16,659 nucleotides of DNA from a virus (lineage: Duplodnaviria; Heunggongvirae; Uroviricota; Caudoviricetes): the IMG/VR virus record IMGVR_UViG_2548876696_000013, one strand, 5' to 3'. Shown one piece after another: positions 1,462-16,659 of this stretch; the first letter of the stretch is position 1, and every line of letters starts with the position of its first letter. Under the pieces are notes generated by a model. That model was not told where the DNA came from. It saw nothing but the letters and a program-made list of their open reading frames with translations, and made no database searches. Position numbers and translations under genes: made by a program.

Positions 1462-1583
1462 ATATGTCCTTTTATCATTACACCAGGTCAAGTCATTGAT
1501 TTAATTAAACAATTATCATTGAAAAAGTGCCAAAAATCGCAAATTGACTACACCATTAACTACACCGTTCGGTGCACTGTATG

Positions 1584-1609
1584 AAACAACGTGGAACAAA
1601 TAGACACAA
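1584..1609 (+). repeat. Three 10-bp-phased NNACAA hexamers (AAACAA-cgtg-GAACAA-atag-ACACAA); candidate recombination-directionality-factor or regulator binding array near the island terminus
   Basis: Hexamers at 1584, 1594 and 1604 with exact 10-bp spacing. The 14-mer ACAACGTGGAACAA at 1586-1599 is identical to the one at 9161-9174. Confidence 0.5.
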
Positions 1610-1895
1610 GAAATATACAGGCGGGTAATCTTTCCAGGGGGAAGCGCACCAATTCATGAGGGGCGTTAATGTCGATATGGGGATCCCCATAACGGGGCTA
1701 CCGGATTTTTTTTCCGGTTAACATTTAATCAGGCTGGTGGGTTTTACATACCCTTGATCACCGTAATGATGATCCAGATGTGCACCTTTTCCACCAATGG
1801 CGGAAAGCTCCAACCGTAACGATGATCGCTATGGTTGCCTCGATGGCCTGCGTGGTCATTATGACCATTCAGAATGTGAGGGATGATGTTTCCGC

Positions 1896-2291
1896 TCTCC
1901 TCAAATTGAGGTTACCGGAAATATCAACTACTTAACGATAAACTGGCGAGTAATTAAACTGCGAAAATTTCGTAGCTTGTGACTATCTGAAAGATCGTCG
2001 GTTGTTCCGGCCTCAACCGTTGGCTGTTTCCGAGAATATCAACGGGTTAGCAAAGCGCAATTTTGCACTTTGCTTTAAGTTCAACCAGTTACCGCCAGCT
2101 TCCCCCAATGGGGGATTGTGGAATAATCAACGGTTTAGGCCTTAATCATCTGCGTAAACATAAGTAATCATAATGATCATTCAGCCAGCGCAAATTTGAG
2201 CTTTGCTTTAAGTTCAGCGAGTTACAGCGCCGACTTCCTCAAATTGAGGTTGCCGGAAATATCAACCAGTTACGAGGCTCAAAATTGAGCC
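1896..2291. repeat. Terminal non-coding repeat cluster: palindromes of the form CTCAA-A-TTGAG and degenerate copies of a 12-mer GGAAATATCAAC
   Basis: Palindromes CCTCAAATTGAGG at 1899-1911 and 2237-2249, GGCTCAAAATTGAGCC at 2276-2291, degenerate GCGCAAATTTGAGC at 2188-2201. 12-mer copies at about 1917, 2031, 2118 and 2255. Two roughly 40-45 bp segments are duplicated (1896-1937 vs 2234-2275; 2051-2096 vs 2185-2228). No ORF of 60 aa or more lies in 1462-2308. Confidence 0.6.
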
Positions 2292-2308
2292 GCCTTTAAA
2301 TCAACACG

Positions 2309-2590
2309 TTACCGCCGTAACCGCTCCGGCTTCTTCCAGTGATACGTGATTTTCTCCTTCTCCCGATACAGTTCAACGCGGCGATTGTAGGCCAGCATTT
2401 CCAGAACGCGGATCCGTATGTCGCGCATATCCGCATCATTAAGCTGGATACCATCACGGCGCATCACCTCAGCAACAACACGCGCATAATTTTCGGCTGT
2501 CACGCTGTCCGGCTGCGTGGTCTGTTCGTCAGCCTGCTGGCTGATTCCAGAGACGCGGCGGATTAATCGCAGTATTTCGGCTTCTGTCAT
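2309..2590 (-). CDS. Hypothetical protein (93 aa), last gene of the packaging operon
   Basis: ORF begins 13 nt downstream of the TerL stop on the same strand, with a GAGG motif 9 nt upstream of the ATG. No family recognised. Confidence 0.55.
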   Translation of the reverse strand: MTEAEILRLIRRVSGISQQADEQTTQPDSVTAENYARVVAEVMRRDGIQLNDADMRDIRIRVLEMLAYNRRVELYREKEKITYHWKKPERLRR

Positions 2591-2603
2591 GCTGCTGACC
2601 TCA

Positions 2604-4265
2604 TTACACCCCGCTAAATTCTTCCAGTTTCTGGCGGTGGCTGTCGCTTATATCAAAAGCAAAATCCTCATGCTCTGCCTGGAATGTACCAAACGCCATC
2701 AGCGCCGCTACGCTCGGGTCTATCTTGTTCGGTGATTTTTTCTTGTTCGGCTTGATATTGGCGTTCGCGTCACTCTGCATCACGACGTTACTCATCGACC
2801 AGGACAACACCGGATCGCCACGATGCACAATCACCCTGCGGTTAACAAAAACTTCGAACGATTTCGCCGCCGGACTGAATCTGAGGTAGGTTTGCGGGAA
2901 CGGCTCCACCTCAAAACCAGCCCCCTGTAATTGCGTCCTGAGATGCGTGGCGTTCCACGTATCAAAGCCCACCAGCCTGATATTAAATTTCTCCGCATCC
3001 TGCATGATGTCATCTCTGATCCGGTCGTAATCAATGCAGTCACCTGGCGTTGTGCGTATCCAGCCCGCTTTAGCCCACTGGCGATAGACAGCGCGGTTTT
3101 TATTGGCGGGGTTCTGTAGCTGGAACTCCGGCAGATAATGACGGGAAACCAGCATGATATTTTTACCGACCGGAAAGGCATAGCACACGCTGGAAATATC
3201 GCTGGTTGATGATAAGTCCAGCCCCGCGTAACACTCCTGCCCGTGTAAATCTTCCTCCGTGAACGTTCCGGCACACTCAGCCCATGCGCCGTTACCCATC
3301 CACGGGGTAGCCCCCTGGCACCAGATATTAAATCGCTTTGTCATCATCTCCACCCATTGCGACGGAATACCCCGCGCTTTCTGGATGGTTGAGGCCAGTT
3401 TTTCACGATCCACGGAAACATCGATGTTAGGGTTAGCCTTTATCCACATCGCCGGATCATCAACCTCGTTTTCGTCGTCCAGCTCGTAAATCAGCACAAA
3501 AATTGAATCGTTGACCTCTTCGCCGTCCAGGATCTGGCAGCAATAATCATAGTGCTGTTTACAGGTTGAAACGACGTTACTGCCCGATGTGGTAATGGCA
3601 AATAACAGCCCTTCGGGACGTGCGCCCATCCCCAGCTCAAGCGCGGAATAAACGCCGTTATCGGGGTGTAGGTGGTATTCGTCCACGATGGAAAGGCTGG
3701 GGTTTGTTCCCTCGATGGTTGCCGCTTTTGCTGCCAGCGGCTTTAACAGGCTGTTGCTTTTCGGGTGCATCACCTTGTGGGCCTGAATATTCACCCGCCT
3801 GCGTAACGGTCGGGATAAAAGGCACATCTGACGCGCATCATCAAAAACGATCCGCGCCTGGTCACGGCTCACCGCTGCGGTGTAAATATCCTGCTGCCCG
3901 TTCTCCATAATCAGAAACCAGTTAGCCAGAATCGCGGCGGTCGTGGATTTCGCATTTTTGCGCGGCACTTCGATAAAGGCGCTCGTGTATTTGCGCCGTC
4001 CGGTGGCCTTAACCTTAAAGCCGAGGATGCACGCAAAGGCGAACTGCTGCCACGGCTCCAGCTCAATGGGTCTGCCACGCATCGGCCCTTTTACGTGCGG
4101 GCACACCCTGGAAAAGGCAATAAACCGCTCCACAACCTCACGATCGAACGTGTAAAGGGGGCTTTCAAGGTCCGAAAAGTACCGTTTAACGGCCTGTTTC
4201 AGCCGTTTACAGGCCGGAATTTTGCCCGTTTTTACGTCTTCTGCGTACTTATTCCAGGCGGTCAA
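2604..4265 (-). CDS. terL: Terminase large subunit (553 aa)
   Basis: N-terminal ATPase with Walker A-like VPRKNAKST and a C-terminal nuclease region; its start overlaps the 3' end of the TerS gene. Confidence 0.9.
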   Translation of the reverse strand: MTAWNKYAEDVKTGKIPACKRLKQAVKRYFSDLESPLYTFDREVVERFIAFSRVCPHVKGPMRGRPIELEPWQQFAFACILGFKVKATGRRKYTSAFIEVPRKNAKSTTAAILANWFLIMENGQQDIYTAAVSRDQARIVFDDARQMCLLSRPLRRRVNIQAHKVMHPKSNSLLKPLAAKAATIEGTNPSLSIVDEYHLHPDNGVYSALELGMGARPEGLLFAITTSGSNVVSTCKQHYDYCCQILDGEEVNDSIFVLIYELDDENEVDDPAMWIKANPNIDVSVDREKLASTIQKARGIPSQWVEMMTKRFNIWCQGATPWMGNGAWAECAGTFTEEDLHGQECYAGLDLSSTSDISSVCYAFPVGKNIMLVSRHYLPEFQLQNPANKNRAVYRQWAKAGWIRTTPGDCIDYDRIRDDIMQDAEKFNIRLVGFDTWNATHLRTQLQGAGFEVEPFPQTYLRFSPAAKSFEVFVNRRVIVHRGDPVLSWSMSNVVMQSDANANIKPNKKKSPNKIDPSVAALMAFGTFQAEHEDFAFDISDSHRQKLEEFSGV

Positions 4266-4605
4266 GCTCGTCCTCTTCTTCTGTTTCCGGTGGATTTTTA
4301 CGGCGGCTTATCGGGTCAAAACCGAGCAAAGAGGCCATTTTTATCATCACTCTTTCAGCGTCGGATTTTGCGCTTAATGCGGGGTTTCTGCTCTCGCCGC
4401 CCTGACTGTTAACAATGCTGAACCCGCGCGCCGCAAGGTCTGCAACGGCTTTCCGGTAAATGGAGTAGTTGACACAATACAGTTCCAGATTGCTCCAGTC
4501 GGCGGGGGTCAGGTCTCCCCGTTCCGCAAGCTGCCTAGATTTTTCCCGCCACTGCTTCACGGCGATATCATCCAGGTAGGCGGGGGCTTTCGGTGGTCTT
4601 GCCAT
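4249..4605 (-). CDS. terS: Terminase small subunit, P27-like family (118 aa)
   Basis: Small basic protein immediately upstream of and overlapping TerL. Sequence pattern resembles the P27 small-terminase family (from memory). Confidence 0.75.
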   Translation of the reverse strand: MARPPKAPAYLDDIAVKQWREKSRQLAERGDLTPADWSNLELYCVNYSIYRKAVADLAARGFSIVNSQGGESRNPALSAKSDAERVMIKMASLLGFDPISRRKNPPETEEEDELDRLE

Positions 4606-4893
4606 GCTTATTTTTCGCCAGATTATTTTTCAAAAAATTCCCGTGCATAAAAATTTGAGGAGGCGTTCGGTGCCCGGCGGGGTCGGGTTTGTCCTGAAAA
4701 CGCCCCCCACCCCGTCATACAGCCTCATCAGCGATTGCGGAAACATTCCATAACCTCGCGGTCACGGTCGGTTAATCGCTTCGCTGTGATGCGTTCTGCG
4801 CGTCCTGACGCTTTATCTTTATGCCCTGTTTCCTGTGTCTTCCATGCGTCACGCTGCCTTATAAGTCCACGGATAAGGCGGTTTTGTTCCCGC
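4606..4893 (-). other. Candidate cos / packaging-initiation region (non-coding gap between HNH and terS)
   Basis: 288-bp gap in an otherwise tightly overlapping operon. Contains a GC-rich stretch (4664-4720: gtgcccggcggggtcgggtttgtcctgaaaacgccccccaccccg). In HK97-like cos phages the cos site sits between the HNH gene and terS. Confidence 0.35.
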
Positions 4894-5334
4894 TCATTCA
4901 TCGGCGTCATACATCCAGTTATTGCGGTTAGCGGCCCGTTCTTCCTCTTCACGAAATCCACCTGCGGCACGCTTGCTTTTTGTTGCCGGATCAAGCCATT
5001 TCGTTTTCTGGTTATGACACGCCTGGCACAATGGCTGATGGTTCCATTCGGGCCAGAAGAGAACATCATCACCGCCATTAATCGGGATAATGTGATCCAC
5101 CACCACGGCGGGCGTATATATCCCCTTCTCAAGGCATCGCACGCATAACGGGTTTTTACTCAGATACATGGCGCGGTATTTGTCCCACTGTCTGGAATAT
5201 CCACGCGCGCGGCGGTGTCCTCGTCTGGCATCCTCTGCACGCCATGCCGCCCGCCTGTGCTCCTCACACTTGCCGGATTTAACGCGCCTGTTACAGCCTG
5301 GTTCTGTGCATCGTCTTAATGGTTGCCACGGCAT
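4894..5334 (-). CDS. HNH endonuclease, packaging-associated (146 aa)
   Basis: Cys-rich zinc-finger-like segments (CTEPGCNRRVKSGKCEEH, CVRCLEKG, CQACHNQK) and an HNH-like core (VVDHIIPI...WNHQPLC). Position directly upstream of the terminase genes. Confidence 0.85.
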   Translation of the reverse strand: MPWQPLRRCTEPGCNRRVKSGKCEEHRRAAWRAEDARRGHRRARGYSRQWDKYRAMYLSKNPLCVRCLEKGIYTPAVVVDHIIPINGGDDVLFWPEWNHQPLCQACHNQKTKWLDPATKSKRAAGGFREEEERAANRNNWMYDADE

Positions 5335-5630
5335 CAGTACACCCCCACATCACGGTAAGCCGTCCAGAGTGCGCCAATCGTCATGGGTACGCGTGTTTTT
5401 GCGTTATCCGCGACAATCTGGCGATTCTCATACAGGTGAGCGATAAACATCATGCAGCCAATCTTTATGGCTGGCGTGAACTCCAGCCCGTCATCAAAGC
5501 GCCTGCCTATATGTATCTGGCACGCCTCAAGCGATGCGGCAATGTATCCGCTGATTAACTGGTCTTCCTCGTCGCCATCGATACGGCAATGGAGTTTCAC
5601 TTCTTCCAGGGTGATAAGTTCTTCTGTCAT
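5334..5630 (-). CDS. Head-tail connector protein, gp6-like (98 aa)
   Basis: Size, position after the head-closure gene, and N-terminal LEEVKLHCRID motif typical of gp6-like connector proteins. Start overlaps the upstream stop by 4 nt. Confidence 0.7.
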   Translation of the reverse strand: MTEELITLEEVKLHCRIDGDEEDQLISGYIAASLEACQIHIGRRFDDGLEFTPAIKIGCMMFIAHLYENRQIVADNAKTRVPMTIGALWTAYRDVGVY

Positions 5631-5965
5631 TTTTCCGCGCCCTCACGACAAAGAATTTCAAGGCGTGTCCTGGCGGCATCCGGCAGCGGCTGCCCGATGA
5701 TATTCAGTACACGCCCCGCCAGCGGCCCCGTATTGACCTTTATCCGGCTGGTGGCGCTGATGTCCTTCCGGTACCGTATCCAGATCCTTACGGTACCAAT
5801 CGCCAGCTCTGCACCCGATGAAATGGCCTCCTTGCTGCTGACCATGTTCACGCTTGCCCAGAGTGTGTGACTGTCCTCCCACGTTTCGAGTATTTCGCCA
5901 GTTATATCCCTGGTCTGTTTCAGGGTCTGAATCGTTACCCTGTCACGCAGTCGCCCTATGTTCAT
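5627..5965 (-). CDS. Head closure / head-tail adaptor protein (112 aa from the internal start MNIGRLRDRVTIQ)
   Basis: The start chosen is the ATG overlapping the portal stop (ATGA at 5962-5965). The GRLRDRVTIQ motif is typical of this family. The longer ORF reaching 6007 would overlap the portal gene. Confidence 0.65.
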   Translation of the reverse strand: MNIGRLRDRVTIQTLKQTRDITGEILETWEDSHTLWASVNMVSSKEAISSGAELAIGTVRIWIRYRKDISATSRIKVNTGPLAGRVLNIIGQPLPDAARTRLEILCREGAEK

Positions 5966-7173
5966 TCCGGTTTTTCTCCCTCGCTGATTTTTACTTCCTG
6001 TTTCCATGCCTGGCTGAACTCATCACCACCATCACGCGGGGACAGCCCTTCACGTTCGCGGGCTTCGTTCGGGCACATAACGCCGGATTTGATACCGCGC
6101 TCATAGGTGGCAAAGCGTTCGCCAGGTGTGGCCCGTAACAGGTCCGCGCTGTCAAACTCCACCTGATACCGGATACCAGGTACAGGCGAGGCCACCAGCA
6201 GGGCGTTTTTTATCTGCTGCTCAAAGTTCGCCAGCCACGGGCGCATCGTCATGGTGAGAAATGCGCGGCTTGCCTCGCTGAAATTGCTGTAGGTGCTGTT
6301 GCTGTATTCCTGCAAAAAAATCGGCGAGACGTTGAACATTCGGGCGATGTCTTCAATGGTGAAGCGACGGGAGGCCAGCCATTCAGCATCCTGGTTACTC
6401 ATGCCCAGCTGCTGGTAACTCATGCCACCTTCAAGGATGGGCGTTTTTCCGGCGTTTCTGGCCCCTTTATAGCGTTCCAGTGCGGCTAATGCCTGTTTGC
6501 CCTTCACGCCGTCCAGCCATTCGCCTGACGTGATAACCCCTGCCGCCATCATGCCATCACGCATCACGCTCGCGCCGTGGCGTTGTTGGGCCAGCCCAAG
6601 CCCCAGCGATTCGCGGCAGATGGTTACAGGTGAGCGCCCCATAAAACCGTCATCCGTGGAGTAACGAAGGTGGAGAACCTCCCACGGTAAATAGTTGCGG
6701 GTGTTTCCGGTGTAGGCGTCAGTGATGCAGTAGCGCCAGTTATGCTCACCTGTCTGCTCCACGTTCACCGACTGCGGCGGGTAAGGATGTAAAGCCACCG
6801 GAAAACCATCACGCCCCCACTGAATCACCGCATAAGCATTACCGTTTAACAGGCAGTGGCGGATCATCATTCGCTTAAACTGGTAGGGGGTTTGCCATGC
6901 GTTCGGGCGCTCGTTGAGGATGTGATCGACCGGATGAGAATCAAGCCACTCGCGGGCCACCTTCCCCTTCTCATTGCGTACCAGGTACAGGTAACACGGC
7001 ATGGTAGCCACCGCCTCAGAGATGACCGTGACGGCGTTCATGACGGCGGGCAGTGATTCCGCTGTCCCCGATGATACGTACTCACCCGCCCCCGTGTTCG
7101 ATGTGCCAGCCAGCGCCATAAATTCATCAAGCGTCATGCTGCGCTGCTCTTTTTTTCTTCTGAAAGGCCACAT
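5962..7173 (-). CDS. Portal protein, HK97 family (403 aa)
   Basis: Size and position between the protease and adaptor genes; HK97-type portal sequence pattern from memory. Confidence 0.85.
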   Translation of the reverse strand: MWPFRRKKEQRSMTLDEFMALAGTSNTGAGEYVSSGTAESLPAVMNAVTVISEAVATMPCYLYLVRNEKGKVAREWLDSHPVDHILNERPNAWQTPYQFKRMMIRHCLLNGNAYAVIQWGRDGFPVALHPYPPQSVNVEQTGEHNWRYCITDAYTGNTRNYLPWEVLHLRYSTDDGFMGRSPVTICRESLGLGLAQQRHGASVMRDGMMAAGVITSGEWLDGVKGKQALAALERYKGARNAGKTPILEGGMSYQQLGMSNQDAEWLASRRFTIEDIARMFNVSPIFLQEYSNSTYSNFSEASRAFLTMTMRPWLANFEQQIKNALLVASPVPGIRYQVEFDSADLLRATPGERFATYERGIKSGVMCPNEAREREGLSPRDGGDEFSQAWKQEVKISEGEKPE

Positions 7174-7174
7174 A

Positions 7175-7747
7175 TCACACCCCCGCTAAATCCACCCACC
7201 AGCGGCGATTATCCGCACGCGGCATTTTTTCGGGGTGCTGCTCATACAGGGAACGGCGGGCCAGCTCCACGCCGGAATCAGGGTAAGCCGGAACGGATGT
7301 AACGGTAATTTCGTACAGTTCCGCCACCAGCACGGTGCGCACGCATGGTTCTGTTGTGGTATCCCATACATCCTTACGGGAACGAAAGCCAAAGCTCATG
7401 CCGGATATATCACCACGTTTAACCAGTTCGATAACGTCCCGCCCTGTGCTGGTATCCGGTGGGGTCAGTTCAAAGCGTAACCCTGTTTCGTCCTCTTCCA
7501 GTTTCAGCGTGCCGGAACGGGTACGCCCCAGTAACATGCTGTGGTCATGCTCATACAGGCCGCGAACGTCATTACCCGCCGCAAGCCATTCAGTAAACGC
7601 TCCCCGCTGGAATTTTTCGTAAAACTCACCCCATAACAGTTCTGAAAGCTTATCCCAGCGAACAACGTAGCCCGTCAGCGTACCGGCTCCGCTGGTGGTG
7701 ATTTCCGATGACCGGATTTCCATACTCTTCATAATTTTTTCACCCAT
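7175..7747 (-). CDS. Prohead maturation protease, HK97 family (start ambiguous among ATGs at 7747, 7732 and 7723)
   Basis: Conserved protease-family pattern (GYVVRWDK ... HD ... LLGRT ... GLRFE ... ISGMSFGF). The first ATG lies inside the upstream terminator tract, so the true start is probably one of the next two. Confidence 0.8.
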   Translation of the reverse strand: MGEKIMKSMEIRSSEITTSGAGTLTGYVVRWDKLSELLWGEFYEKFQRGAFTEWLAAGNDVRGLYEHDHSMLLGRTRSGTLKLEEDETGLRFELTPPDTSTGRDVIELVKRGDISGMSFGFRSRKDVWDTTTEPCVRTVLVAELYEITVTSVPAYPDSGVELARRSLYEQHPEKMPRADNRRWWVDLAGV

Positions 7748-7756
7748 AAAACACTA

Positions 7757-7786: not shown

Positions 7787-8944
7787 TTAATCGTCGTCCT
7801 GTGGCAGTTCCAGAATCTTGATCGCGTTCGAATCCACCACGCCACCGCCTAAATATTTCTGCGTGAAAATTTTGATGAAGCCCGGCTCTGTGAGGTTGTC
7901 CGGTCTGGTGCGAACACCTGTTTCGTGATCAACAATGTAGTAACCGCGTTTGAAGTCACCCAGGGCAATAACGTTATCAGGCATAAACTCCAGATATTCG
8001 ACCGGAAGGCCCAGCAACGTATCAGGATCACCCGCCTGTAAACGGTCGCGCCAGATGTAATCACCGTTCGCGTTCTTCACCTTCTGAAGTTTTGCCGCCG
8101 TCGTGGAGTTAACCACCCAGACCGCGTTTTTGCGGTATTTTTTACGTAATGCAAATTTCAGGTCGATCAACGGGTCCGCAGATGTCCACGCCAGAGATTC
8201 GGAAGGTTTAATTACCTGCAACGTACCAAAATCACGCTCTTTGTCGTTCTTCTCTGCACGGGGTACGGATAAAAAGCCTTTTGCTTTTTTGTCACCGTCG
8301 CCCACAACCAGATCGCTTTCTTCGGTTTCCGTGAAGGTGTCGCCAATCTCACCCGTCAGCCATGAAAGGATGTCCACATCGGAAAAATCCACGATTTCCT
8401 GTGTGGTGCGCGGGTACGCATAGACCGGATACAGCTTAATGCTCACCTCGTTAATCTGCGGGGTGCTGGTCTGTTCGCGTGTCTTACCCTCTTCACCGTG
8501 GTTAACGGTCGCACCGCCAGCGGAAACAAGCTGCTTAAACTCGTTGCTGCTGATTTTCTTCACGGTACAGATGCGGCGCATGGTGGACTCATCCGCCAGC
8601 ATTCGCATGATTTCGGTGTTCAGCTCGGGGATAACGGTATAACCACCATCAGCGGGAACGCCTGTACTTAATGCGCGGGTTTCACCCGTCAGAATGTAGT
8701 TTCGTAGTTCTGCGGGGTCAGTGGTCTGACTGCTTTTACCTGGCTTGCTGCGCTCTTCGTCTGCAATGGCTTCAAGGCGGGAAATGTCTTTATCGAGGGA
8801 TTCAGCTTTAGCGCGTAATTCGTCAAATTTTGCGCCCTCAGCATCGTTAAGACTGCGGTTTTCTTTTTCCGCGTTCTCCAGCATGTCGCGCATCTGATTT
8901 TTAATGGCGGTTTTCTGCTGGCGTAATTCGATTATTCTCGGCAT
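7787..8944 (-). CDS. Major capsid protein, HK97 fold, with N-terminal coiled-coil delta (scaffold) domain (385 aa)
   Basis: N-terminal 100 aa are charged and helical (delta-domain-like), followed by a capsid-like body. First gene of the head operon. Confidence 0.9.
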   Translation of the reverse strand: MPRIIELRQQKTAIKNQMRDMLENAEKENRSLNDAEGAKFDELRAKAESLDKDISRLEAIADEERSKPGKSSQTTDPAELRNYILTGETRALSTGVPADGGYTVIPELNTEIMRMLADESTMRRICTVKKISSNEFKQLVSAGGATVNHGEEGKTREQTSTPQINEVSIKLYPVYAYPRTTQEIVDFSDVDILSWLTGEIGDTFTETEESDLVVGDGDKKAKGFLSVPRAEKNDKERDFGTLQVIKPSESLAWTSADPLIDLKFALRKKYRKNAVWVVNSTTAAKLQKVKNANGDYIWRDRLQAGDPDTLLGLPVEYLEFMPDNVIALGDFKRGYYIVDHETGVRTRPDNLTEPGFIKIFTQKYLGGGVVDSNAIKILELPQDDD

Positions 8945-9554: not shown

Positions 9555-9578
9555 CAAAAAAGCCGGATTGCTCCGGCT
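9555..9578 (-). terminator. Rho-independent terminator after the PerC-like gene (same hairpin sequence as 9208-9225)
   Basis: Hairpin AGCCGGATTGCTCCGGCT at 9561-9578 preceded on the plus strand by A6 (U6 on the minus-strand transcript). Upstream stop codon at 9601. Confidence 0.7.
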
Positions 9579-10270: not shown

Positions 10271-10518
10271 AATTCCACCTCTCCGGTTTTAACGTTGATG
10301 GTTGTTACCTGTTCCGCTTCGGCAATCTCCCGTTCTGTCAGCGTGGCAAAGTTTGCCGCTGCTGTGGTCATGAATGCGCTTATCAGGTCGGGATGTTCTT
10401 TCGCGTATCCTTCCCCCGCGTGGCGGTCTATCGTTCTGATTGCCACCTTTAAGGCGTGCTCTGTCATGTCTAATGCTTTATATTTTGGCGCTGTCTTATC
10501 TCTGGTTTTTCTGTTCAT
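10267..10518 (-). CDS. Hypothetical protein (83 aa), first gene after the origin
   Basis: ORF translationally coupled to ssb (ATGA overlap). Start abuts the iteron array. No family recognised. Confidence 0.5.
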   Translation of the reverse strand: MNRKTRDKTAPKYKALDMTEHALKVAIRTIDRHAGEGYAKEHPDLISAFMTTAAANFATLTEREIAEAEQVTTINVKTGEVEL

Positions 10519-10716
10519 TCCCCACTACTCCCCACTTTTGCTCCCCACTTTTTGAAATTACCCACCGTCTCCCCACCTCTTTTTTTTGTGATTCTAACGT
10601 TATGTTTTTCAATATGTTTTTTACTCCCCACTTTTTTGGGTGTATACAGGTGGGAAAGTGGGTAATTATGTTTCAATTTTGTTAAATTCCCCACTCTCCC
10701 CACTTTTACTCCCCAC
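10519..10716. repeat. Iteron-type replication origin: 8 direct TCCCCAC repeats, 1 variant, 2 inverted copies and an AT-rich spacer
   Basis: TCCCCAC at 10519, 10529, 10542, 10570, 10625, 10688, 10697 and 10710; variant ACCCACC at 10560; inverted copies at 10649-10664; AT-rich stretch at 10577-10624. Lies directly 3' of the replication ATPase gene. Confidence 0.7.
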
Positions 10717-10719
10717 TTT

Positions 10720-12129
10720 TTACAGCGGGCGCACGTCATCACCGTCAATAACGATTACGCCATCATTTTCCAGCTTGTACAGCCAGCGCCGGAAGTGCTT
10801 CATCTCATACCCCAGCTTTTTCATATCATCGCGGAGAAGGGCGATAGTGCACGCCTCCCCGTGTGCTGTTCGTGTTCTGATGCACTGCCATAGCGCGGCG
10901 TGATTCTCCGTCTTGTTCCCTGCCTCCTCGATGCGCTCCAGTTCAACGGGAGGGCGCGGCTTATCCACCACCACCAGCGACGTGATTAACTCCCCGTCAG
11001 CGTCGGTAAAAAGCTCCACCACCCGCAAATCATAGGCAGCCTCTTTGAGTTCCTCCGCGTCCTTCATTTTGGTGCATGAGATAACCAGCGCTTCGCTTCC
11101 TGCGTCCTCCCTGCGTATCCGGTATTCAGCATCCAGTGATGCACGAAATGCACTGGAACCGCGCGCGCCTTTCGTCTCATCCTTGCCGGAATGGTGAACC
11201 ACCAGCACCGTGGCCCCTGTGCGCCGTTTCAGTTCGTCACACCCACGGATAAACGCCCCCATGTCACGGGAATCATTTTCGTCATTGCCGCCAAAGCAAC
11301 GCGCCAGCGTGTCCAGAATAATCATGCGAACAGGTTTACCCGTTTCCCGCTCAACCTGGCTGGCAGCAATAACCAGTTCATCAACATCAAGCGGGACAGC
11401 CGGAAAGATGGGACGGTTTACAAGGTAAAGATTTTTCACCTGCTCCCCGTGCACAACCTCCCAGGCTTTTACACGACGCGGAACGCCAATACCGCCTTCA
11501 CCAACCACATAGAGAACAGCGCCATGCGCCACCCTGCGGCCTCCCCACTGGCGGCCCGTGGAAACGTGACACGCCCACGATCCGGCAAGGAATGATTTAT
11601 AGGAACCGCTCGCCCCGTATATGCTGCAAAGCGACGATGCCGGAATAATCCCCTTTACCACGTAATCAAGCTGTGTGTCGTATCCGGTAGATCCAACGCT
11701 CATCGGTAGCGTGGTTTTTCGCTGGGGGATTTTTTTCATGACCAGGCTTTCCCCGCGTTCCCATGCCTCCCTAAGCCGTGGAAGCTGGTCGTTCCATTCC
11801 TCCAGCAATTCGAAATTTTCAGAAAGTAGCCGCGCCTCCTGGACTCCGGCGATCGCCAGTTTCGTGGCGATGGTTAACAGCTGCGGCTCTTCAATATTTC
11901 CGGCGCGTATCACCGTCGCCCTGTATCGCCCATCATCAACAATCTGGAGGTTATCCAGTTCGCTTAACTGATAACGCCCCAGATAAACGGGAGGGACTGG
12001 ATCGCCTGCTTTTTTGGCCTGTGCAATGATGTAGTGCTCTGCAAATGAGTGCGCATTATTCCCCGCGAAAATAATTGCTTCGGTGTATTTGTCTTTCGGT
12101 AATAGTTTTACGTTCGGTGCAAGTTTCAT
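10720..12129 (-). CDS. Replication initiation ATPase / helicase-like protein, RecA-fold AAA type (469 aa)
   Basis: Walker A motif GASGSYKS, Walker B-like MIILDTLARCF, and a C-terminal putative winged-helix region. Position immediately upstream of the iterons. Confidence 0.8.
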   Translation of the reverse strand: MKLAPNVKLLPKDKYTEAIIFAGNNAHSFAEHYIIAQAKKAGDPVPPVYLGRYQLSELDNLQIVDDGRYRATVIRAGNIEEPQLLTIATKLAIAGVQEARLLSENFELLEEWNDQLPRLREAWERGESLVMKKIPQRKTTLPMSVGSTGYDTQLDYVVKGIIPASSLCSIYGASGSYKSFLAGSWACHVSTGRQWGGRRVAHGAVLYVVGEGGIGVPRRVKAWEVVHGEQVKNLYLVNRPIFPAVPLDVDELVIAASQVERETGKPVRMIILDTLARCFGGNDENDSRDMGAFIRGCDELKRRTGATVLVVHHSGKDETKGARGSSAFRASLDAEYRIRREDAGSEALVISCTKMKDAEELKEAAYDLRVVELFTDADGELITSLVVVDKPRPPVELERIEEAGNKTENHAALWQCIRTRTAHGEACTIALLRDDMKKLGYEMKHFRRWLYKLENDGVIVIDGDDVRPL

Positions 12130-12425
12130 TTTTTACCCCTGAATACGTTCAACATCTTTCTTATTTCCTGAATATTGGCGCGTGCTTTCTCCCTGCTGGT
12201 GGGCACGTTACGCGGTACAGCCTGCACCAGAGAAAAATCACGGTCGAACTGATAAACAGGCATAACGCAATCATATTCGTAGCCTTCACGGCGGTAAGTT
12301 ACGCGCCGTTCCTCCACGCCCTTAATCATTACCGTGCCGCCGTACTGGTCGCGGTAAATATCACCGCGCGTAAATTTAGGGTGAGTGTTGCCACTGGCAG
12401 TTAAGCCAGGATATTTAAGTTTCAT
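12126..12425 (-). CDS. DUF4222-like small protein (99 aa)
   Basis: The pattern GDIYRDQYGGTVMIKGVEERRVTYRREGYEYDCVMPVYQF resembles the DUF4222 family often found next to satellite or prophage replication genes (from memory). ATGA overlap with the rep gene. Confidence 0.55.
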   Translation of the reverse strand: MKLKYPGLTASGNTHPKFTRGDIYRDQYGGTVMIKGVEERRVTYRREGYEYDCVMPVYQFDRDFSLVQAVPRNVPTSREKARANIQEIRKMLNVFRGKK

Positions 12426-12430
12426 TATTT

Positions 12431-12658
12431 TTATTCTCCGGTGTGGGGCGCTTTATTATTTTCGTGAATTGCCATCGCCTTATCCAGTTCATCAATTACA
12501 GGCGATAGTAATGTCTGAACGGCGGCAAATATTAATGATGCAGGTTCTCCACCATCTTCCGGCACGTCTATTAACTTAATTAACAGCGCATTCATTTCAC
12601 GCGCTTTAATTAATGCGTTTTCAGAATGAATAAGAACATCATAGGGTATTTTATGCAT
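12431..12658 (-). CDS. Hypothetical protein (75 aa)
   Basis: ORF whose start overlaps the stop of the upstream small gene by 8 nt (ATGCATAA). No family recognised. Confidence 0.5.
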   Translation of the reverse strand: MHKIPYDVLIHSENALIKAREMNALLIKLIDVPEDGGEPASLIFAAVQTLLSPVIDELDKAMAIHENNKAPHTGE

Positions 12659-12821
12659 GACTCACCCCCTGACGAATACGGGCGACAAAAATCAGATGTG
12701 CGCGCGGCAACTGGGCGCGGGCTTCGCGTTCAGTGGCTGCGGTAACGGTGTAAATATCAATGCTGCTGTGGTGGCACTGCATAAAGCGCCAGACAAAGTA
12801 AGGGCGTGCGGATACAGCCAT
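12651..12821 (-). CDS. Small protein, paralog B (56 aa core; possibly Icd-like). A longer 150-aa form starting at 13115 is also possible
   Basis: Shares FVWRF, TEREAR and ARIRQG motifs with paralog A. A synonymous codon difference in the shared ARIRQG segment supports coding on this strand. Start is ambiguous. Confidence 0.45.
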   Translation of the reverse strand: MAVSARPYFVWRFMQCHHSSIDIYTVTAATEREARAQLPRAHLIFVARIRQGVSHA

Positions 12822-13107
12822 GTGAAAGGCTCCCAGATGAAATTTAAGGAGTCTCGCTACTACGCTGCTAAACGGGGTGGCGAGACGTAACAGGGTTAGC
12901 AGACTGGTCATCTGGAAACCAGCGAGCGCAAAGGCTCCCCCGTTACGCCCCGCCATAATGCGGGTATGGGTAGGTTTACGGACACAAAAAAACCGCTTAT
13001 CGGATATGGGCGGCTGTCCGCCAGATGTATTCAGGCTGCTAAACCCGGTCGCCATGTGGGCGACGGGTGAAGCATACAGCCCCGTTATAATTTTTTGCAA
13101 GCGGCTT

Positions 13108-13305
13108 TTACTCATGATGTGACCCCTGACGAATACGAGCGGCAAATACAGCAACACAACCGGACGGGCAACGGTTACGCGCTTCGCGTTCCGTCCAGGC
13201 GGTGACGTGGATGATTTGAGATTCTCCGGCACTCAGGGCCAGAAAACGCCACACAAAGGCCGTTTGTGTGTGTACAAGGTGTGGTATATGATTTACGGCA
13301 ACCAT
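13108..13305 (-). CDS. Small protein, paralog A (65 aa); possible host cell-division-inhibitor Icd-like protein
   Basis: Strong SD (GAGGAG 6 nt upstream of the ATG). Paralogous to 12651-12821. The Icd-like call rests on an uncertain memory of the family pattern. Confidence 0.5.
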   Translation of the reverse strand: MVAVNHIPHLVHTQTAFVWRFLALSAGESQIIHVTAWTEREARNRCPSGCVAVFAARIRQGSHHE

Positions 13306-13336
13306 AACGGCTCCTCGTTTACGTTGTTGGTTAGAA

Positions 13337-13377
13337 GCCCCGTATGTGTTCCAGCACTGCGGGGTTTCGTCTTTTCT
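13337..13377 (+). terminator. Hairpin (ccccg / cgggg stem, conserved 17-nt loop) with a U-rich tail; plus-strand terminator-like element, copy 1
   Basis: Seen in sequence. A near-identical element, including the loop, occurs at 14083-14124. Confidence 0.45.
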
Positions 13378-13394
13378 GTACCTTGCATCAACAA

Positions 13395-13476
13395 GGTGTA
13401 AGACACAATGTAAAATAACGGTGTCTTACACGTCAACCCTTCAAAATATTTTTTTTTCGTGTATATTGTCTTACAC
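13395..13476. promoter_or_regulatory. Divergent promoter/operator region with three GTCTTACAC sites (one inverted pair and one direct copy)
   Basis: GGTGTAAGACAC at 13395-13406 is the reverse complement of GTGTCTTACAC at 13421-13431; a third copy lies at 13467-13476. A possible sigma70 promoter (TTCAAA, 16-nt spacer, TATATT) sits at 13440-13467. Confidence 0.5.
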
Positions 13477-13497
13477 CAAAAACATGAGGGGTTAAAC

Positions 13498-13677
13498 ATG
13501 GCAACGGGGCCAAAGAATGCAAAATCACAATCTGTAACTGCACGTATTGCCCATGAAATTATTGAAGGCATGGAGAACGTGAAAGAAGAAGGTGAAAGCA
13601 CGGGGCAGTTTATAAACGCAGCCATGCGCGGCGAAATCAAACGCCGCCAGCGTCGCAAGGCCAAAGAATCAGAATAA
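13498..13677 (+). CDS. Ribbon-helix-helix (CopG/Arc/MetJ-like) DNA-binding protein (59 aa); candidate repressor
   Basis: GAGGGG SD 7 nt upstream of the ATG. Beta-strand/helix/helix pattern (QSVTARIAHEIIEGMENVKEEGESTGQFINAAMRGEI) and a basic C-terminal tail. Confidence 0.55.
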   Translation: MATGPKNAKSQSVTARIAHEIIEGMENVKEEGESTGQFINAAMRGEIKRRQRRKAKESE

Positions 13678-13734
13678 TCACTATCAGCGCCGTGGTGTGA
13701 GGTACTACGGCGCATTGCTTTACAGGGCAGTATC

Positions 13735-13962
13735 ATGACCAACAACACACTATCACCAATACAAGACACGCAAACGCAAGATGATGAAATCATCCGGCAA
13801 AGGCAGTCAGAAGCCTGCGCCAGACTTGAGGAAGAACTAACCAGAACAAAAATACCACCACCAGCGCCGCGCTTAGTGCCACCAGAAAAATTTGCCCTTG
13901 AAGATTTTGTCGATAAATACCCACGGCGGCTTAAATCCGGCAAAAACCGACCGCCAGGATGA
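13735..13962 (+). CDS. Small hydrophilic protein (75 aa), partner of the RHH protein, module 1
   Basis: Paralogous to 14420-14623 (both start MTN; shared motif F-x-L-[ED]-[DE]-F-[VL]-x-K-Y-[PS]-R). Weak SD. Confidence 0.4.
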   Translation: MTNNTLSPIQDTQTQDDEIIRQRQSEACARLEEELTRTKIPPPAPRLVPPEKFALEDFVDKYPRRLKSGKNRPPG

Positions 13963-14082
13963 GTGCACAAAACCGAACTATGAAACGGATTATTCCGTTT
14001 CCGGGGCGTTTGTGTGTGTATAAAGAGTAAGCTATGCTCTTTTATAGCCATAATCGTTACCTCAATTAATGGTTTGGTTAGA

Positions 14083-14124
14083 CGCCCCGTATGTGTTCCC
14101 ATCACTGCGGGGCGTTGTTTTTTG
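14083..14124 (+). terminator. Rho-independent terminator-like hairpin (CGCCCCG / CGGGGCG) plus TTGTTTTTTG, copy 2
   Basis: 7-bp stem, 18-nt loop nearly identical to the loop at 13343-13359, then a T-rich tract. Confidence 0.5.
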
Positions 14125-14130
14125 TGCTAG

Positions 14131-14164
14131 TTGTGTGTAATGTGTATATACACATAAACACATT
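14131..14164. promoter_or_regulatory. Operator-like 16-bp perfect palindrome ATGTGTATATACACAT (14140-14155) overlapping a putative -10 element
   Basis: Perfect palindrome seen directly. Possible promoter TTGTGC (14122-14127), 17-nt spacer, TATATA (14145-14150). Confidence 0.45.
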
Positions 14165-14182
14165 ATATGGGGTGTAATTGAC

Positions 14183-14362
14183 GTGTCAACACACAAGAAT
14201 GAAAGGCGTGGTAATCCTCCTTTCCAGTTCCGTTTAGATCCTGACTTACGGGAAAAGATGGAAAAAGCACAACAACAAGACGGTGATGACTCTTTAGCTG
14301 CTTGGATAAAACGAATAATCCGAAAAGAATTACAGCAACGCGGTATTGAACCCAAAGAATAA
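14183..14362 (+). CDS. Arc-like ribbon-helix-helix protein (59 aa, GTG start)
   Basis: Absent from the supplied ORF track because it is only 59 aa. GGGGTG SD 8 nt upstream of GTG at 14183. The pattern PPFQFRLDPDLREKMEKAQQQDGDDSLAAWIKRIIRKEL matches the Arc/RHH fold. Confidence 0.5.
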   Translation: MSTHKNERRGNPPFQFRLDPDLREKMEKAQQQDGDDSLAAWIKRIIRKELQQRGIEPKE

Positions 14363-14419
14363 AAAACATCAGCGCCGTGGCGTGAGGAACTCCGGCGCAT
14401 TGCTTTACAGGTACACACA

Positions 14420-14623
14420 ATGACCAATAAAGAATCAACCAATACACCATCGCAAAAAACGAACAGAGAGCACGAAAATATGGCGCTCGAGCATGAATCA
14501 GAAAGATTCGCTCCATGCGCTTTTGTCCTTGATGAGTTTCTAAAAAAATATTCACGTTCTGAACGGATGAAAATGGCAGCACAATACGGCCCCAACAAGC
14601 AAGGTAATTGCCCACCAGCCTGA
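14420..14623 (+). CDS. Small hydrophilic protein (67 aa), partner of the RHH protein, module 2
   Basis: Paralog of 13735-13962; preceded by the same conserved hairpin element. Confidence 0.4.
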   Translation: MTNKESTNTPSQKTNREHENMALEHESERFAPCAFVLDEFLKKYSRSERMKMAAQYGPNKQGNCPPA

Positions 14624-14697
14624 TAGCGGCTATCATTCCCGTGCTTATGTTTGGGATCACATACACATAAGGCGCAGCAGGTTAATTGTTCAGAAAG

Positions 14698-14726
14698 GCG
14701 GCTCCATATCGGGGCCGCTTTTTTTA
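14698..14726 (+). terminator. Strong Rho-independent terminator (GCGGCTCC-atatc-GGGGCCGC then T7)
   Basis: 8-bp GC-rich stem with one G-U pair, 5-nt loop, seven T's. Ends the plus-strand modules and lies convergent with the alpA 3' end. Confidence 0.75.
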
Positions 14727-14866
14727 TGCCTGAAAAACCCCAATTTTGTTGTTTTTCAGTTTCACCAGGGCGAACGAATCCCCGCCCACGTTCGGGCGCA
14801 TATTCAATCTTCATAGTTATATCTCTGTATTAGTGGATGTGTGGCGACTGTGTGCCGCCAGTCTTT

Positions 14867-15055
14867 TTAGTGAACTGCCTTGCAGCTATCCTTCCAGGCC
14901 AAAACCTCAGATAAAGACCAGCCAACAGAACGCCCACCAAGTTTACGACGTGATGGGAATTGTCCGGCCTTTTCCAGGCGGTAGCGGCATGAGCGGCTAA
15001 GGCCTGTTAGCTTTTCGCATTCTTTTTCACGTATAAACCGATCAGTGCTTAACAC
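14867..15055 (-). CDS. alpA: AlpA-family phage regulatory protein / excisionase-like HTH (62 aa, GTG start)
   Basis: Motif KLTGLSRSCRYRLEKAGQFPSRRKLGGRSVGWSLSEVLAWK is typical of the AlpA/Vis family. SD AAGGGGG lies 7 nt upstream of the GTG. Confidence 0.85.
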   Translation of the reverse strand: MLSTDRFIREKECEKLTGLSRSCRYRLEKAGQFPSRRKLGGRSVGWSLSEVLAWKDSCKAVH

Positions 15056-15214
15056 TATTGCCCCCTTTCGTTTCTTAAAGAGTTATTTCGTGTTCTATTG
15101 CGTTGGGATGTGTCTGATTGTGTCAGGATGATTCAGAGTTGGCAAATGTTGGTGTCGCATGGTTTACAGAAAGAGGAATAATCAGGATAAAATCATTTAA
15201 ATTCATATCAATAC

Positions 15215-15246
15215 AAAGGCATAAAATCTTGTTTTATGCCTTTTTT
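15215..15246. terminator. Bidirectional hairpin terminator between int and alpA (AAAGGCATAAAA-tcttg-TTTTATGCCTTT then T6)
   Basis: 12-bp stem seen in sequence. T-tract on the plus strand and an A/U-rich flank on the minus strand. Confidence 0.6.
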
Positions 15247-15337
15247 CGCACGCTTTAACGCGTAATTCACTAATGTATAAAAAACCAGCTAAGCATTAAA
15301 AATCAGTAACTTATAAATCTGTATTCTTTTTGGCCTC

Positions 15338-15383
15338 TTGTTCGTGATTGTGTCACGTTGTTGCACATTGTTTCACGTTGTAT
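15338..15383 (-). promoter_or_regulatory. Five exactly 10-bp-phased NNACAA hexamers (minus-strand orientation) with CGTG/TGTG spacers
   Basis: Plus-strand TTGTTC, TTGTGT, TTGTTG, TTGTTT and TTGTAT at 15338, 15348, 15358, 15368 and 15378. Located 47-92 bp downstream of the int stop codon. Confidence 0.55.
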
Positions 15384-15429
15384 CTGTGCACTTATCCAGT
15401 ATGCGCATACTGAAAAAACACGAAAAAAA

Positions 15430-16659
15430 TTATTTTATTCTGGTTACTGGTAGCGTGGTTACGTTTTCATGTGTTCCCGCCAGTATCTCCAACCGCTCCA
15501 CCCACATATCAAGCGCATTGCGTTTCGCATCAATATAGCGGGAATGGTTGTACACGCGTTGCATTCCTGGCATCTGGTGGCCTGTAAGCTGCTCCACGAC
15601 GTGAGGATCAACGCCTAAATCGTTCAGCATGGTTGTAAAGGTGCGCCGGATGTCATGCAGTGACCAGTGAGGGTGTTTAAGCCTCCTGTGCACCAATCTG
15701 CCGTACTGCGATACGCTGGTTTCCTGTTTCACTTCCCCCAGCAATAAGCCCGTGTGCCTGTTCTGCTCCACCAGCTGCGTGACGAACGGCAGTATCGCTT
15801 CCGGTATGGGCCGGAATATGGCTACCTTCGTTTTGCTGTGCTCCTTCGGAACGGTCCAGAGCATTTCGGTAAAATCCCACTCGCCGATCTCCGATAACCT
15901 CAGTTCTACTGTCCGGCATCCGAAAACAATCAGGAGGCGGATTAGTGCGACGTAGTAAGGGGAAAATATTTTTTTGTCCAGTGCCTGCAATAATTCGCCA
16001 AGTTCTTTGTTACTTAAGACACGCTCACTTATATCCGGTTTTTTCCCAACGTCCGCCACACTCATATCATCAAGAACGTTGCTGATTGCATAGCGCCGCT
16101 TCCTGCAGAACTTAAGCGCCTGCTTGCATGTCTGTAGCAGGAACCCGGCGGAAACAGGGGCTTTCTTTGCCACCCGATCAAAACAGGCCAGCCAGTGCCG
16201 TAGCTCGCATTTATCCAGCGGCATAGGGCCAATGTGCTGTATTACGTGATTATTTAGCCGCTTTTTCAGTGGGTCATAATCCACACGGTTTTCCTTTGCG
16301 TACGACTCAAGCCAGTAGGTGAGCGCATCGCCAACCGTTACCGGCTTTAACGCTTCCTGTACGGTGTAATTCATTTCATGACGTGGATTTTTCCCCTCTG
16401 CCAGCCATGCGCGACACTGGGCGGCTTTTTCCCTGGCTGATTTCAGGCTCAGATCAGGATAATTTCCCAGCTTAATGCGTTCCGGTGGTGCCCCCCTTCC
16501 CGTTCCGGCCCTGTAAGTGAAATACCAGGTTAAAAGGCCACTGGTTGAATGCCTGACGCTCAGGTTTCCACCGTCATTAAGAAAGGCTGTTTTTTGGGCG
16601 GGTGTGCCGTTGATTTTCCTCAGCTGTGTATCGCTCAGTTTGTTAAGTGCTCTGCTCAT
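15430..16659 (-). CDS. int: Tyrosine site-specific integrase, P4-like (409 aa; start codon is the last three bases of the window)
   Basis: N-terminal arm-binding-like region (LSDTQLRKI ... DGGNLSVRHSTSGLLTWYFTYR) and a C-terminal catalytic region with conserved R, HxxR and Y (HDIRRTF ... YNHSRYID). The upstream RBS is outside the window, so the true start could lie further out. Confidence 0.9.
   Translation of the reverse strand: MSRALNKLSDTQLRKINGTPAQKTAFLNDGGNLSVRHSTSGLLTWYFTYRAGTGRGAPPERIKLGNYPDLSLKSAREKAAQCRAWLAEGKNPRHEMNYTVQEALKPVTVGDALTYWLESYAKENRVDYDPLKKRLNNHVIQHIGPMPLDKCELRHWLACFDRVAKKAPVSAGFLLQTCKQALKFCRKRRYAISNVLDDMSVADVGKKPDISERVLSNKELGELLQALDKKIFSPYYVALIRLLIVFGCRTVELRLSEIGEWDFTEMLWTVPKEHSKTKVAIFRPIPEAILPFVTQLVEQNRHTGLLLGEVKQETSVSQYGRLVHRRLKHPHWSLHDIRRTFTTMLNDLGVDPHVVEQLTGHQMPGMQRVYNHSRYIDAKRNALDMWVERLEILAGTHENVTTLPVTRIK

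Follow-up and report, generated by a model that had tools for sequence, protein, structure and literature searches.

The DNA immediately 3′ of phoQ in the viral record IMGVR_UViG_2548876696_000013 raises the question of whether a compact block of integration, replication and phage head genes is the residue of a prophage, a satellite that redirects the capsids of a helper phage, or a satellite that builds capsids of its own. The window, by which we mean the whole 16,659-nucleotide stretch analyzed, begins with the PhoQ coding sequence (1-1461), and from 1470 to the window end the credible genes lie almost all on the minus strand. An initial annotation had read this block as a tail-less, capsid-encoding island with the character of a P4 hybrid. 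We conclude that the block, of about 15.4 kb, is very probably a capsid-forming phage-inducible chromosomal island (cf-PICI), a mosaic variant of EcCIEDL933 that occupies the same bacterial attachment site (attB) between phoQ and roxA. EcCIEDL933 is the element also called CP-933C in EDL933, O-island 51 (OI-51), and Sp7 in Sakai. The island is thus already known, in that it is a member of a published family, sitting at the type locus of that family, which has been characterized both experimentally and structurally.

The capsid protein, the packaging module as a whole and the inventory of parts all bear out the call of a tail-less cf-PICI. The capsid is identical to chain B of PDB entry 9GYI at 384 of 385 residues, and this entry is, according to the paper of its depositors, the EcCIEDL933 capsid, a T=4 particle of 47.5 nm with a 15.5-kb genome inside (10.1101/2025.02.11.637232). 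The phoQ-roxA site of O157:H7 strain ATCC 35150 holds an island with the same head operon, to which protein identities are 98.2% for the large terminase TerL, 100% for the small terminase TerS, 99.3% for the HNH endonuclease, 100% for the adaptor, 92.9% for head closure, 99.3% for the portal, 96.8% for the protease, 99.7% for the capsid, 99.3% for the single-stranded DNA-binding protein (SSB), 98.4% for AlpA, and 95.4% for the integrase. Pfam scans recovered 11 of the 11 core components of the SatelliteFinder cfPICI model and none of the tail or holin genes that the model forbids. The head and packaging module consists of the following features.

2604-4265, minus strand: large terminase TerL, with ATPase and nuclease domains (PF03354, PF20441)
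4249-4605, minus strand: small terminase TerS, P27/Terminase_4 (PF05119, E = 1.3e-23)
4606-4727, minus strand: candidate cos site upstream of terS, with a G-rich block ACGGGGTGGGGGGCG (4715-4701) and then A/T tracts
4728-4910, minus strand: conserved basic 60-residue open reading frame (ORF) between HNH and terS (phrog_3173, E = 7.5e-37)
4894-5334, minus strand: HNH endonuclease (PF01844)
5334-5630, minus strand: gp6-like head-tail adaptor, Ad1 (PF05135; phrog_40)
5627-5965, minus strand: head closure, connector or head-completion protein, Hc1 (PF05521; phrog_25)
5962-7173, minus strand: portal protein (PF04860, E = 1e-90)
7175-7747, minus strand: prohead serine protease S78, HK97 family (PF04586, E = 9e-48)
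7787-8944, minus strand: HK97-fold major capsid protein (PF05065, residues 100-379)
8945-9207, minus strand: predicted control region of the head and packaging operon, with three TTGTTC repeats, GTTCGTGGTTGTTCCACGTTGTTC

All Pfam assignments in this work lie above the curated cut-offs. The remaining parts that define a cf-PICI are also present, and the integrase, AlpA, replication ATPase with iterons, SSB and full HK97-type head and packaging set were each found intact where they had been annotated.

1460-1469: att core AAATATGTCC at the phoQ-side junction, from comparison with the empty K-12 site; the 10-mer recurs in two related islands, L001 and L003
1547-1567, plus strand: two ACTACACC repeats, probable arm-type integrase sites
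9860-10270, minus strand: single-stranded DNA-binding protein SSB (PF00436)
10509-10721: predicted replication origin, two (C)TCCCCAC(TTTT) iteron clusters around an AT-rich center plus inverted copies
10720-12129, minus strand: RepA-family replicative helicase AAA_25, 469 residues (PF13481, E = 8.6e-44; phrog_2850)
14867-15055, minus strand: AlpA regulator (PF05930, E = 5e-18)
15430-16659, minus strand: P4-type tyrosine integrase (PF13356, arm-binding; PF00589), 100% identical to that of L001

An integrase stands at one end with an AlpA-type regulator adjoining it, att repeats bound about 15.4 kb (the right-hand repeat being taken from L001 and L003) where cf-PICIs span about 10-17 kb, and the island has its own replication protein and origin, the RepA/AAA_25 helicase and iterons, as judged from Pfam and PHROGs. 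Capsid, prohead protease and portal (PF05065, PF04586, PF04860) are joined by Ad1 and Hc1 and by HNH, TerS and TerL. No ORF in the window matched a tail, tail-fiber, holin, endolysin or other lysis family in Pfam, PHROGs or NCBIfam scans, as had been annotated, and the relatives are bounded by phoQ and roxA.

The head genes are not only complete but constrained. Ten head, packaging and neighboring ORFs are full length, without internal stops, and the eight packaging genes differ from those of the O157 island at 159 synonymous and 31 non-synonymous positions. With a pooled dN/dS (the ratio of non-synonymous to synonymous substitution rates) of 0.05, the module is under strong purifying selection, and the degraded head genes by which the initial annotation proposed to refute its own call were not found. 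TerL has a dN/dS of 0.04, and the head-closure gene, at 0.50, is the sole relaxed head gene, a value that fits the published view that cf-PICI adaptor and connector proteins evolve to fit different tails (10.1101/2025.02.11.637232). Among 5426 complete Escherichia coli genomes, all 5426 match part of the window, phoQ being the portion common to all, 413 contain at least 80% of the packaging module, and 50 contain at least 80% of the whole window. The closest islands sit in non-O157 Shiga toxin-producing E. coli (STEC) strains. Beyond E. coli chromosomes, the nearest "phage" records are entries of 15-16.5 kb, and no full-size phage exceeds 40% capsid identity. The closest capsids among such deposits, at 34-65% identity, belong to LR881103.1 (16.5 kb), OR544139.1 (15.3 kb) and PQ793804.1 (16.5 kb); these short records are probably packaged cf-PICIs rather than phages. 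The EcCIEDL933 family has been described as distinct from phages (Alqurainy et al.).

The order of the head genes had been called unusual, with an adaptor and then a connector following the portal. It does differ from HK97, in which the order is TerS-TerL-portal-protease-capsid-Ad1-Hc1, but the island reads capsid-protease-portal-Hc1-Ad1-HNH-cos-TerS-TerL, with Hc1 preceding Ad1, and this is the conserved cf-PICI order, unchanged in a cf-PICI of about 80% identity inserted at yifB (L006). The different organization relative to HK97 had already been remarked in a published comparison (Alqurainy et al.). Similarly, the gap annotated between HNH and TerS is in part a 122-bp non-coding stretch (4606-4727) and in part the conserved 60-residue ORF, which is annotated in all related islands. 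The non-coding stretch is nearly invariant across three cf-PICIs, one of them only about 80% identical overall. In HK97-type cos phages the cos site adjoins the HNH gene, upstream of terS, and HNH is a packaging cofactor of the terminases. We consider 4606-4727 the best candidate for cos and likely to contain it, the precise cut site being a prediction. Packaging of cf-PICIs is of the cos type (10.1101/2025.02.11.637232).

At the other end of the operon, GTTCGTGGTTGTTCCACGTTGTTC lies at about 9140-9200 on the minus strand, upstream of the capsid gene, and repeats TTGTTC three times in roughly 10-bp phase. This block is kept in the yifB island and is absent upstream of the capsid-like operon of EcCICFT073, a classical PICI at the same attB; it may be the binding site of an activator of the head operon. 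A terminator-like hairpin with a T-run stands 3′ of the capsid gene (7777-7756). The capsid residues before about 100, which fall outside the Pfam domain, are taken as the N-terminal delta domain. No solved structure is close to the portal, the best match having E = 1e-38.

The borders of the island were placed by comparison with the empty site of K-12, as the initial annotation had advised. Homology stops at 1469 and the island begins at 1470: the phoQ-roxA spacer of K-12 reads ...TAAATATGCCCATACTTCACG, and the window reads ...TAAATATGTCC and then island DNA. The attB of K-12 reads AAATATGCCC, which gives a core consensus of AAATATG(T/C)CC. In L001 and L003, whose integrases are 100% and 99.5% identical to that of the window, a second copy of AAATATGTCC-ATACTTCACG lies 172 bp past the start codon of the integrase, and the start of roxA is 248 bp past the integrase gene. 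These comparisons suggest an att core of about 10 bp and an island of about 15.4 kb whose integrase-side end would lie about 170 bp past the window. Because roxA directly follows the integrase in these relatives, tail or lysis genes have no room there, and the possibility that such genes adjoin the block on the same element is not borne out. The core overlaps only the final 2 bases of the phoQ stop codon, and phoQ is therefore unaltered; since the window contains no tRNA gene, the att site is not a tRNA. The location next to phoQ, singled out in the initial annotation, is real and corresponds to an attB already known for this integrase and used by EcCICFT073 as well. It has been on record since the O157 genome papers, OI-51 next to phoQ having long been annotated as a degraded P4-like cryptic prophage (PMC3378721).

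The ACTACACC pair near the phoQ-side junction also occurs at the opposite island end of L001 and L003, between the integrase gene and attR. Because the integrase has an arm-binding domain (Arm-DNA-bind_3), these repeats are probably arm-type sites. The yifB-inserted cf-PICI has a 95.7% identical version of the block around the phoQ-side pair (1532-1695). The integrase itself has 95% identity to its counterparts in the O157 and CFT073 islands.

Comparison of the island with known systems shows what is shared and what is particular to this copy. With EcCIEDL933 it shares the phoQ-roxA attB, the integrase family (95%), AlpA (98%), SSB, a PerC/PchE-type regulator, a DUF4222 protein orthologous to RgdR, Icd-like ORF 1, the head and packaging operon with its order (proteins 93-100% identical), and a size of about 15.4 kb, the published size of the prototype (Alqurainy et al.). 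It differs in that the prototype has a 710-residue DUF927 primase-helicase where this copy has the 469-residue RepA/AAA_25 protein, in the C4 RNA, a1b1 leader and second Icd-like ORF that the O157 island does not have, in the region downstream of alpA, and in 8 substitutions in head closure. EcCICFT073 has the same attB, integrase and AlpA (95%), an identical PerC protein, SSB (98%), DUF4222, Icd-like, YlcI/YnfO and terminal 93-residue genes, but carries only a lambda-type module of capsid and decoration-like proteins, without portal, protease, adaptor, HNH or TerL, and needs helper capsid proteins and terminase. Classical PICIs are defined by the lack of portal, connector or adaptor, and TerL, and the SatelliteFinder PICI model forbids portal, adaptor, head closure and TerL, every one of which is present here. 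HK97 and HK106, which are cos siphophages, share the HK97-fold capsid with its delta domain, S78 protease, portal, gp6-like adaptor, head closure and HNH-assisted TerS/TerL cos packaging. The island differs from them in having no tail, lysis or lysogeny-switch genes and in a T=4 capsid as against T=7 for HK97, and it places about 15.4 kb between its att sites where a complete HK97-like prophage would have tail and lysis genes and about 40 kb.

The prototype provides the functional context for these genes. EcCIEDL933 is mobilized at high frequency by a helper phage, requires alpA for induction and transfer, and makes small capsids from its own proteins, the helper HK106 supplying tail genes only; mutation of each gene of its packaging module, which as defined includes HNH, abolished transfer, with the hypothetical gene 1792 only partly required (Alqurainy et al.). 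By extrapolation from the 93-100% protein identity, the island described here would likewise transfer in a helper-dependent manner, in small capsids of its own and with only the tails taken from a helper.

The replication region is where this copy departs from the prototype, the block 10525-13120 being mosaic relative to it. The span 10519-10717 holds 8 copies of TCCCCAC as against 1 elsewhere in the 16.6-kb window, and these iterons lie directly 3′ of the rep gene and flank an AT-rich stretch. RepA is 78% identical to RepA of L001 and L003. Its resemblance to the replication proteins of the O157 (DUF927) and CFT073 (primase) islands is confined to the N-terminal 121 residues, which have 46% identity to the N-termini of those proteins, so that this domain has the look of a common module coupled to different replication engines. 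Pfam, NCBIfam and PHROGs showed no primase domain in RepA. The SSB retains its C-terminal tip (...GIPF).

Upstream of repA lies an early region that contains a second departure from the prototype.

12126-12425, minus strand: DUF4222 protein, orthologue of RgdR (ECs1581) (PF13973)
12431-12658, minus strand: 75-residue protein whose start overlaps the stop of Icd-like ORF 2 (phrog_2196)
12651-12821, minus strand: Icd-like ORF 2, predicted C4 RNA target (NF033153, 55 bits; cut-off 25)
12873-12960, minus strand: C4-type antisense (immunity) RNA, full length (Rfam RF01695, 71.6 bits; gathering threshold 45)
12986-13077, minus strand: leader with a1/b1-type C4 target sites and an isrK-like terminator hairpin (RF03163, RF01394)
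13108-13305, minus strand: Icd-like ORF 1 (NF033153, 64.8 bits), 95% identical to the O157 copy

The leader scores 44.4 bits with RF03163 (gathering threshold 46.7) and 36.8 bits with RF01394 (isrK), the latter reaching 62-66 bits in L001 and L003. These two islands, which are also of the RepA type, carry the C4 RNA as well, and Rfam scans of the O157 island, taken to E values as high as 1, gave no match to C4 or isrK. The C4 loop CCAGAUGA (12915-12908) is an exact 8-nucleotide complement of UCAUCUGG (12840-12833), which overlaps the GGGAG Shine-Dalgarno sequence of Icd-like ORF 2 (ATG at 12821). A second element, CUGCUAACCC (12902-12893), faces GUUUAGCAG (12873-12865) downstream and GGGUUUAGCAG (13046-13036) upstream, and a second CAUCUGG stands at 13027-13021. 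Complementarity of C4 to the downstream stretch exceeds that of 500 shuffles (z = -4.0), and whole-length RNA duplex folding against the upstream leader is uninformative (z = -2.4); our assignment of the target relies on the downstream value and on the exact loop complementarity.

The arrangement resembles the immI locus (c4-icd-ant) of P1 and P7, in which C4 is likewise flanked by a1b1 and a2b2 targets and the downstream target overlaps an Icd-like ribosome-binding site. It differs in that the downstream genes are here the 75-residue ORF, RgdR/DUF4222 and the RepA helicase rather than an antirepressor, and a similar function would be by analogy. The genes for Icd-like ORF 2, the 75-residue protein, DUF4222 and RepA overlap or adjoin one another, so that control exerted at the ribosome-binding site of the first could extend along the operon. 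We speculate, while thinking it rather doubtful, that the C4 RNA is an immunity factor of the island that pairs with the ribosome-binding site of Icd-like ORF 2 and silences the Icd-like/75-residue/RgdR/RepA operon until a helper arrives, in which case silencing of RgdR and RepA would act by translational coupling and polarity. A targeted literature search on C4 antisense RNA together with PICIs found nothing; C4 and isrK matches in Gram-negative PICIs are mentioned once, in one sentence and without experiments (PMC10111431). In the relatives, an "ash family protein" pseudogene called by the PGAP annotation pipeline overlies the C4 and isrK RNA genes (21817-22155 in L001, 20849-21187 in L003) and is more likely an artefact of annotation than a gene in decay.

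Two homologues of host virulence regulators are carried by the satellite, the RgdR orthologue and a PchE-like member of the PerC family, a gene that had gone unmentioned in the initial annotation.

9601-9849, minus strand: PerC-family regulator, PchE-like (PF06069, E = 2e-35)

The RgdR orthologue is 89% identical to the O157 copy and conserves R20-G21-D22 and K35, and the PerC protein is 100% identical to the copy in the CFT073 PICI. In O157, RgdR (ECs1581) of OI-51 is an activator of LEE1 and of type III secretion encoded by LEE, the locus of enterocyte effacement, and a repressor of motility, deletion of OI-51 lowers LEE expression and sheep colonization via RgdR, and the PerC-family copy of OI-51 has been named PchE (PMC3378721).

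How far these data separate a cf-PICI from other elements with similar genes can now be considered. That the head genes are functionless leftovers of a decayed prophage is very improbable. Such a reading has in its favor the historical annotation of the locus (PMC3378721), the lack of tail and lysis genes, and the PGAP pseudogenes in the early region of relatives, but one of those pseudogenes overlies the C4 and isrK RNA genes, the ten head, packaging and neighboring ORFs are full length with a packaging-module dN/dS of 0.05, islands at different att sites keep the same compact set of genes, and a prototype with near-identical proteins is mobilized at high frequency and makes its own capsids. 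We give next to no credence to a P4-like satellite or true P4/cf-PICI hybrid, which would redirect capsid assembly of a helper and use the helper terminase. The P4 character noted initially is real as far as the P4-type integrase, AlpA and Icd-like ORFs go, and P4 also shares a C4/CI-class immunity RNA upstream of replication genes and a dependence on helpers, to which the "ash family" fragment of the relatives may be added. However, the combination of integrase, AlpA and CI/C4-class RNA is common to enterobacterial PICIs generally, and EcCICFT073, a classical PICI that occupies this site too, carries the same left-hand genes, which are therefore the standard left half of such islands and not a mark of hybrid origin. 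P4 itself lacks capsid, portal and terminase, remodels P2 capsids via Sid and Psu and uses the cos and terminase of P2, whereas capsid, portal, terminase and a cos candidate are all carried by this island itself; scans with Pfam, NCBIfam and PHROGs matched no ORF to Sid, Psu, Delta/Ogr or a primase domain, and in place of the alpha primase-helicase of P4 the replication protein shows an AAA_25 helicase domain only.

A third reading accepts the cf-PICI architecture and holds that this copy is kept mainly as a regulatory island of the host, through RgdR and the PchE-like protein, and may no longer move. The phenotype of the OI-51 deletion (PMC3378721), the intact RGD motif of the RgdR orthologue, and the finding that none of 17 resident EDL933 prophages mobilized the prototype efficiently (Alqurainy et al.) speak for it; purifying selection on the head genes and their wide spread argue that mobility is still selected, and the two roles are compatible rather than exclusive. 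We regard it as unlikely. Several points nonetheless weigh against taking the copy described here as an active cf-PICI of the EcCIEDL933 type. Its mobility, and its use of a helper phage, are argued by analogy with the prototype. The window stops at the integrase start, so that the integrase-side att of the source strain lies outside it. The replication and early-control module differs from that of the tested prototype, with RepA rather than DUF927 and with a C4 RNA in addition, and induction and replication of this copy are for that reason extrapolated. Finally, 8 of the 112 residues of the head-closure protein are substituted relative to the prototype, which could alter tail compatibility.

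With the cf-PICI assignment as the preferred reading, a life cycle can be proposed. The P4-type integrase would recombine the island at AAATATG(T/C)CC just after the phoQ stop, the core being drawn from sequence comparison and the arm repeats having a predicted role. The island would remain silent until a helper phage switches on alpA, as shown for the prototype, and in this copy the Icd-like/RgdR/RepA operon is probably blocked by the C4-type RNA as well. After excision, the gene content suggests replication from the iteron origin with the island's own RepA helicase and SSB. Capsid protein, protease and portal would assemble a T=4 capsid of about 47.5 nm, as they do in the prototype, whose capsid protein is one residue apart. 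TerS, TerL and HNH would cut the island's own cos, probably within 4606-4727, and package 15.4-kb monomers; in the prototype, self-packaging is exclusive. Adaptor and head closure would then finish the neck, to which helper-made tails would join, as shown for the prototype with HK106.

The remaining features lie outside these modules. Between AlpA and the early operon (13459-14623) there are small plus-strand ORFs, namely YlcI/YnfO, an Arc-like ORF and two unknowns, together with a minus-strand promoter.

13459-13677, plus strand: small protein of the YlcI/YnfO family (NF041551, 64 bits; phrog_949)
14183-14362, plus strand: Arc-like ORF (phrog_228, Arc-like repressor, E = 1.5e-6), coding status weakly supported
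14189-14162, minus strand: sigma-70 consensus promoter, TTGACA-16-TATAAT, matching at 12 of 12 positions
14420-14623, plus strand: 67-residue ORF (phrog_21027), coding status weakly supported

The YlcI/YnfO gene is annotated in L001, L003 and a further relative (L005), with a start that corresponds to 13498. The promoter, directed toward the early operon, coincides in part with the start of the Arc-like ORF, and together with the plus-strand ORFs, whose coding status is uncertain, it could form a small genetic switch. The long minus-strand ORFs that had been annotated in 12651-14814 did not hold up: those at 12651-13232, 13293-14105 and 14062-14814 have no Pfam, PHROGs or NCBIfam match beyond the Icd-like tail of the first, one overlies the RNA genes, and we treat them as spurious. 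In a codon-position test of 14327-14814 against the O157 island, differences fell evenly over codon positions, with many indels, and both strands behaved alike. A tandem duplication of 13300-14850 was considered and dropped, as only 56 bp are shared (13671-13726 with 14356-14411, 87.5%) and the ORF pairs are 28% identical over 42 residues. PADLOC found no defense system among the unknown ORFs; a marginal Cas8g match on a 67-residue ORF (E = 6e-4) is treated as noise.

Around the PerC and SSB genes and at the island's left end are the following.

1898-2316: array of about seven short hairpins, each followed by (A/T)TCAACnnGTTA
2309-2590, minus strand: 93-residue protein, last gene of the island (phrog_1561, E = 1.5e-55)
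9236-9460, minus strand: 74-residue protein (phrog_1957, E = 1.5e-39)
10267-10518, minus strand: 83-residue protein (phrog_1231, E = 1.3e-51)

Identical terminator-like hairpins, AGCCGGAGCAATCCGGCT with a T-run, stand on the minus strand 3′ of PerC (9561-9578) and 3′ of the 74-residue ORF (9208-9225), and the same hairpin occurs in EcCICFT073. The hairpin array, of which CCTCAAATTGAGG and CCCCCAATGGGGG are examples, separates the att-proximal region from the last gene and varies in copy number between islands; 6 of the 8 matches to CA[AG]C..[GT]TTA in the window fall within 2040-2311. The array has no Rfam match and no T-runs, and intrinsic terminators, considered as an explanation, were not seen in it. 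The 93-residue gene is present in 1304 of the 5426 E. coli genomes, including CFT073, and is common to classical PICIs.

Satellites of this kind matter because they package themselves and spread widely via tails from different phages. This copy indicates that the head module of EcCIEDL933 moves in company with at least two replication and early modules, one with DUF927 and without the C4 RNA and the other with RepA and the C4 RNA, and that intact orthologues of the LEE regulators RgdR and PchE are carried in what is probably a non-O157 STEC background. We know of no master repressor for Gram-negative PICIs, and the C4 RNA provides a candidate for RNA-based immunity in PICI repression in these bacteria. 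If it acts as proposed, it would constitute a layer of repression not yet characterized for cf-PICIs, and expression of the virulence regulator RgdR would be tied to the induction state of the satellite.

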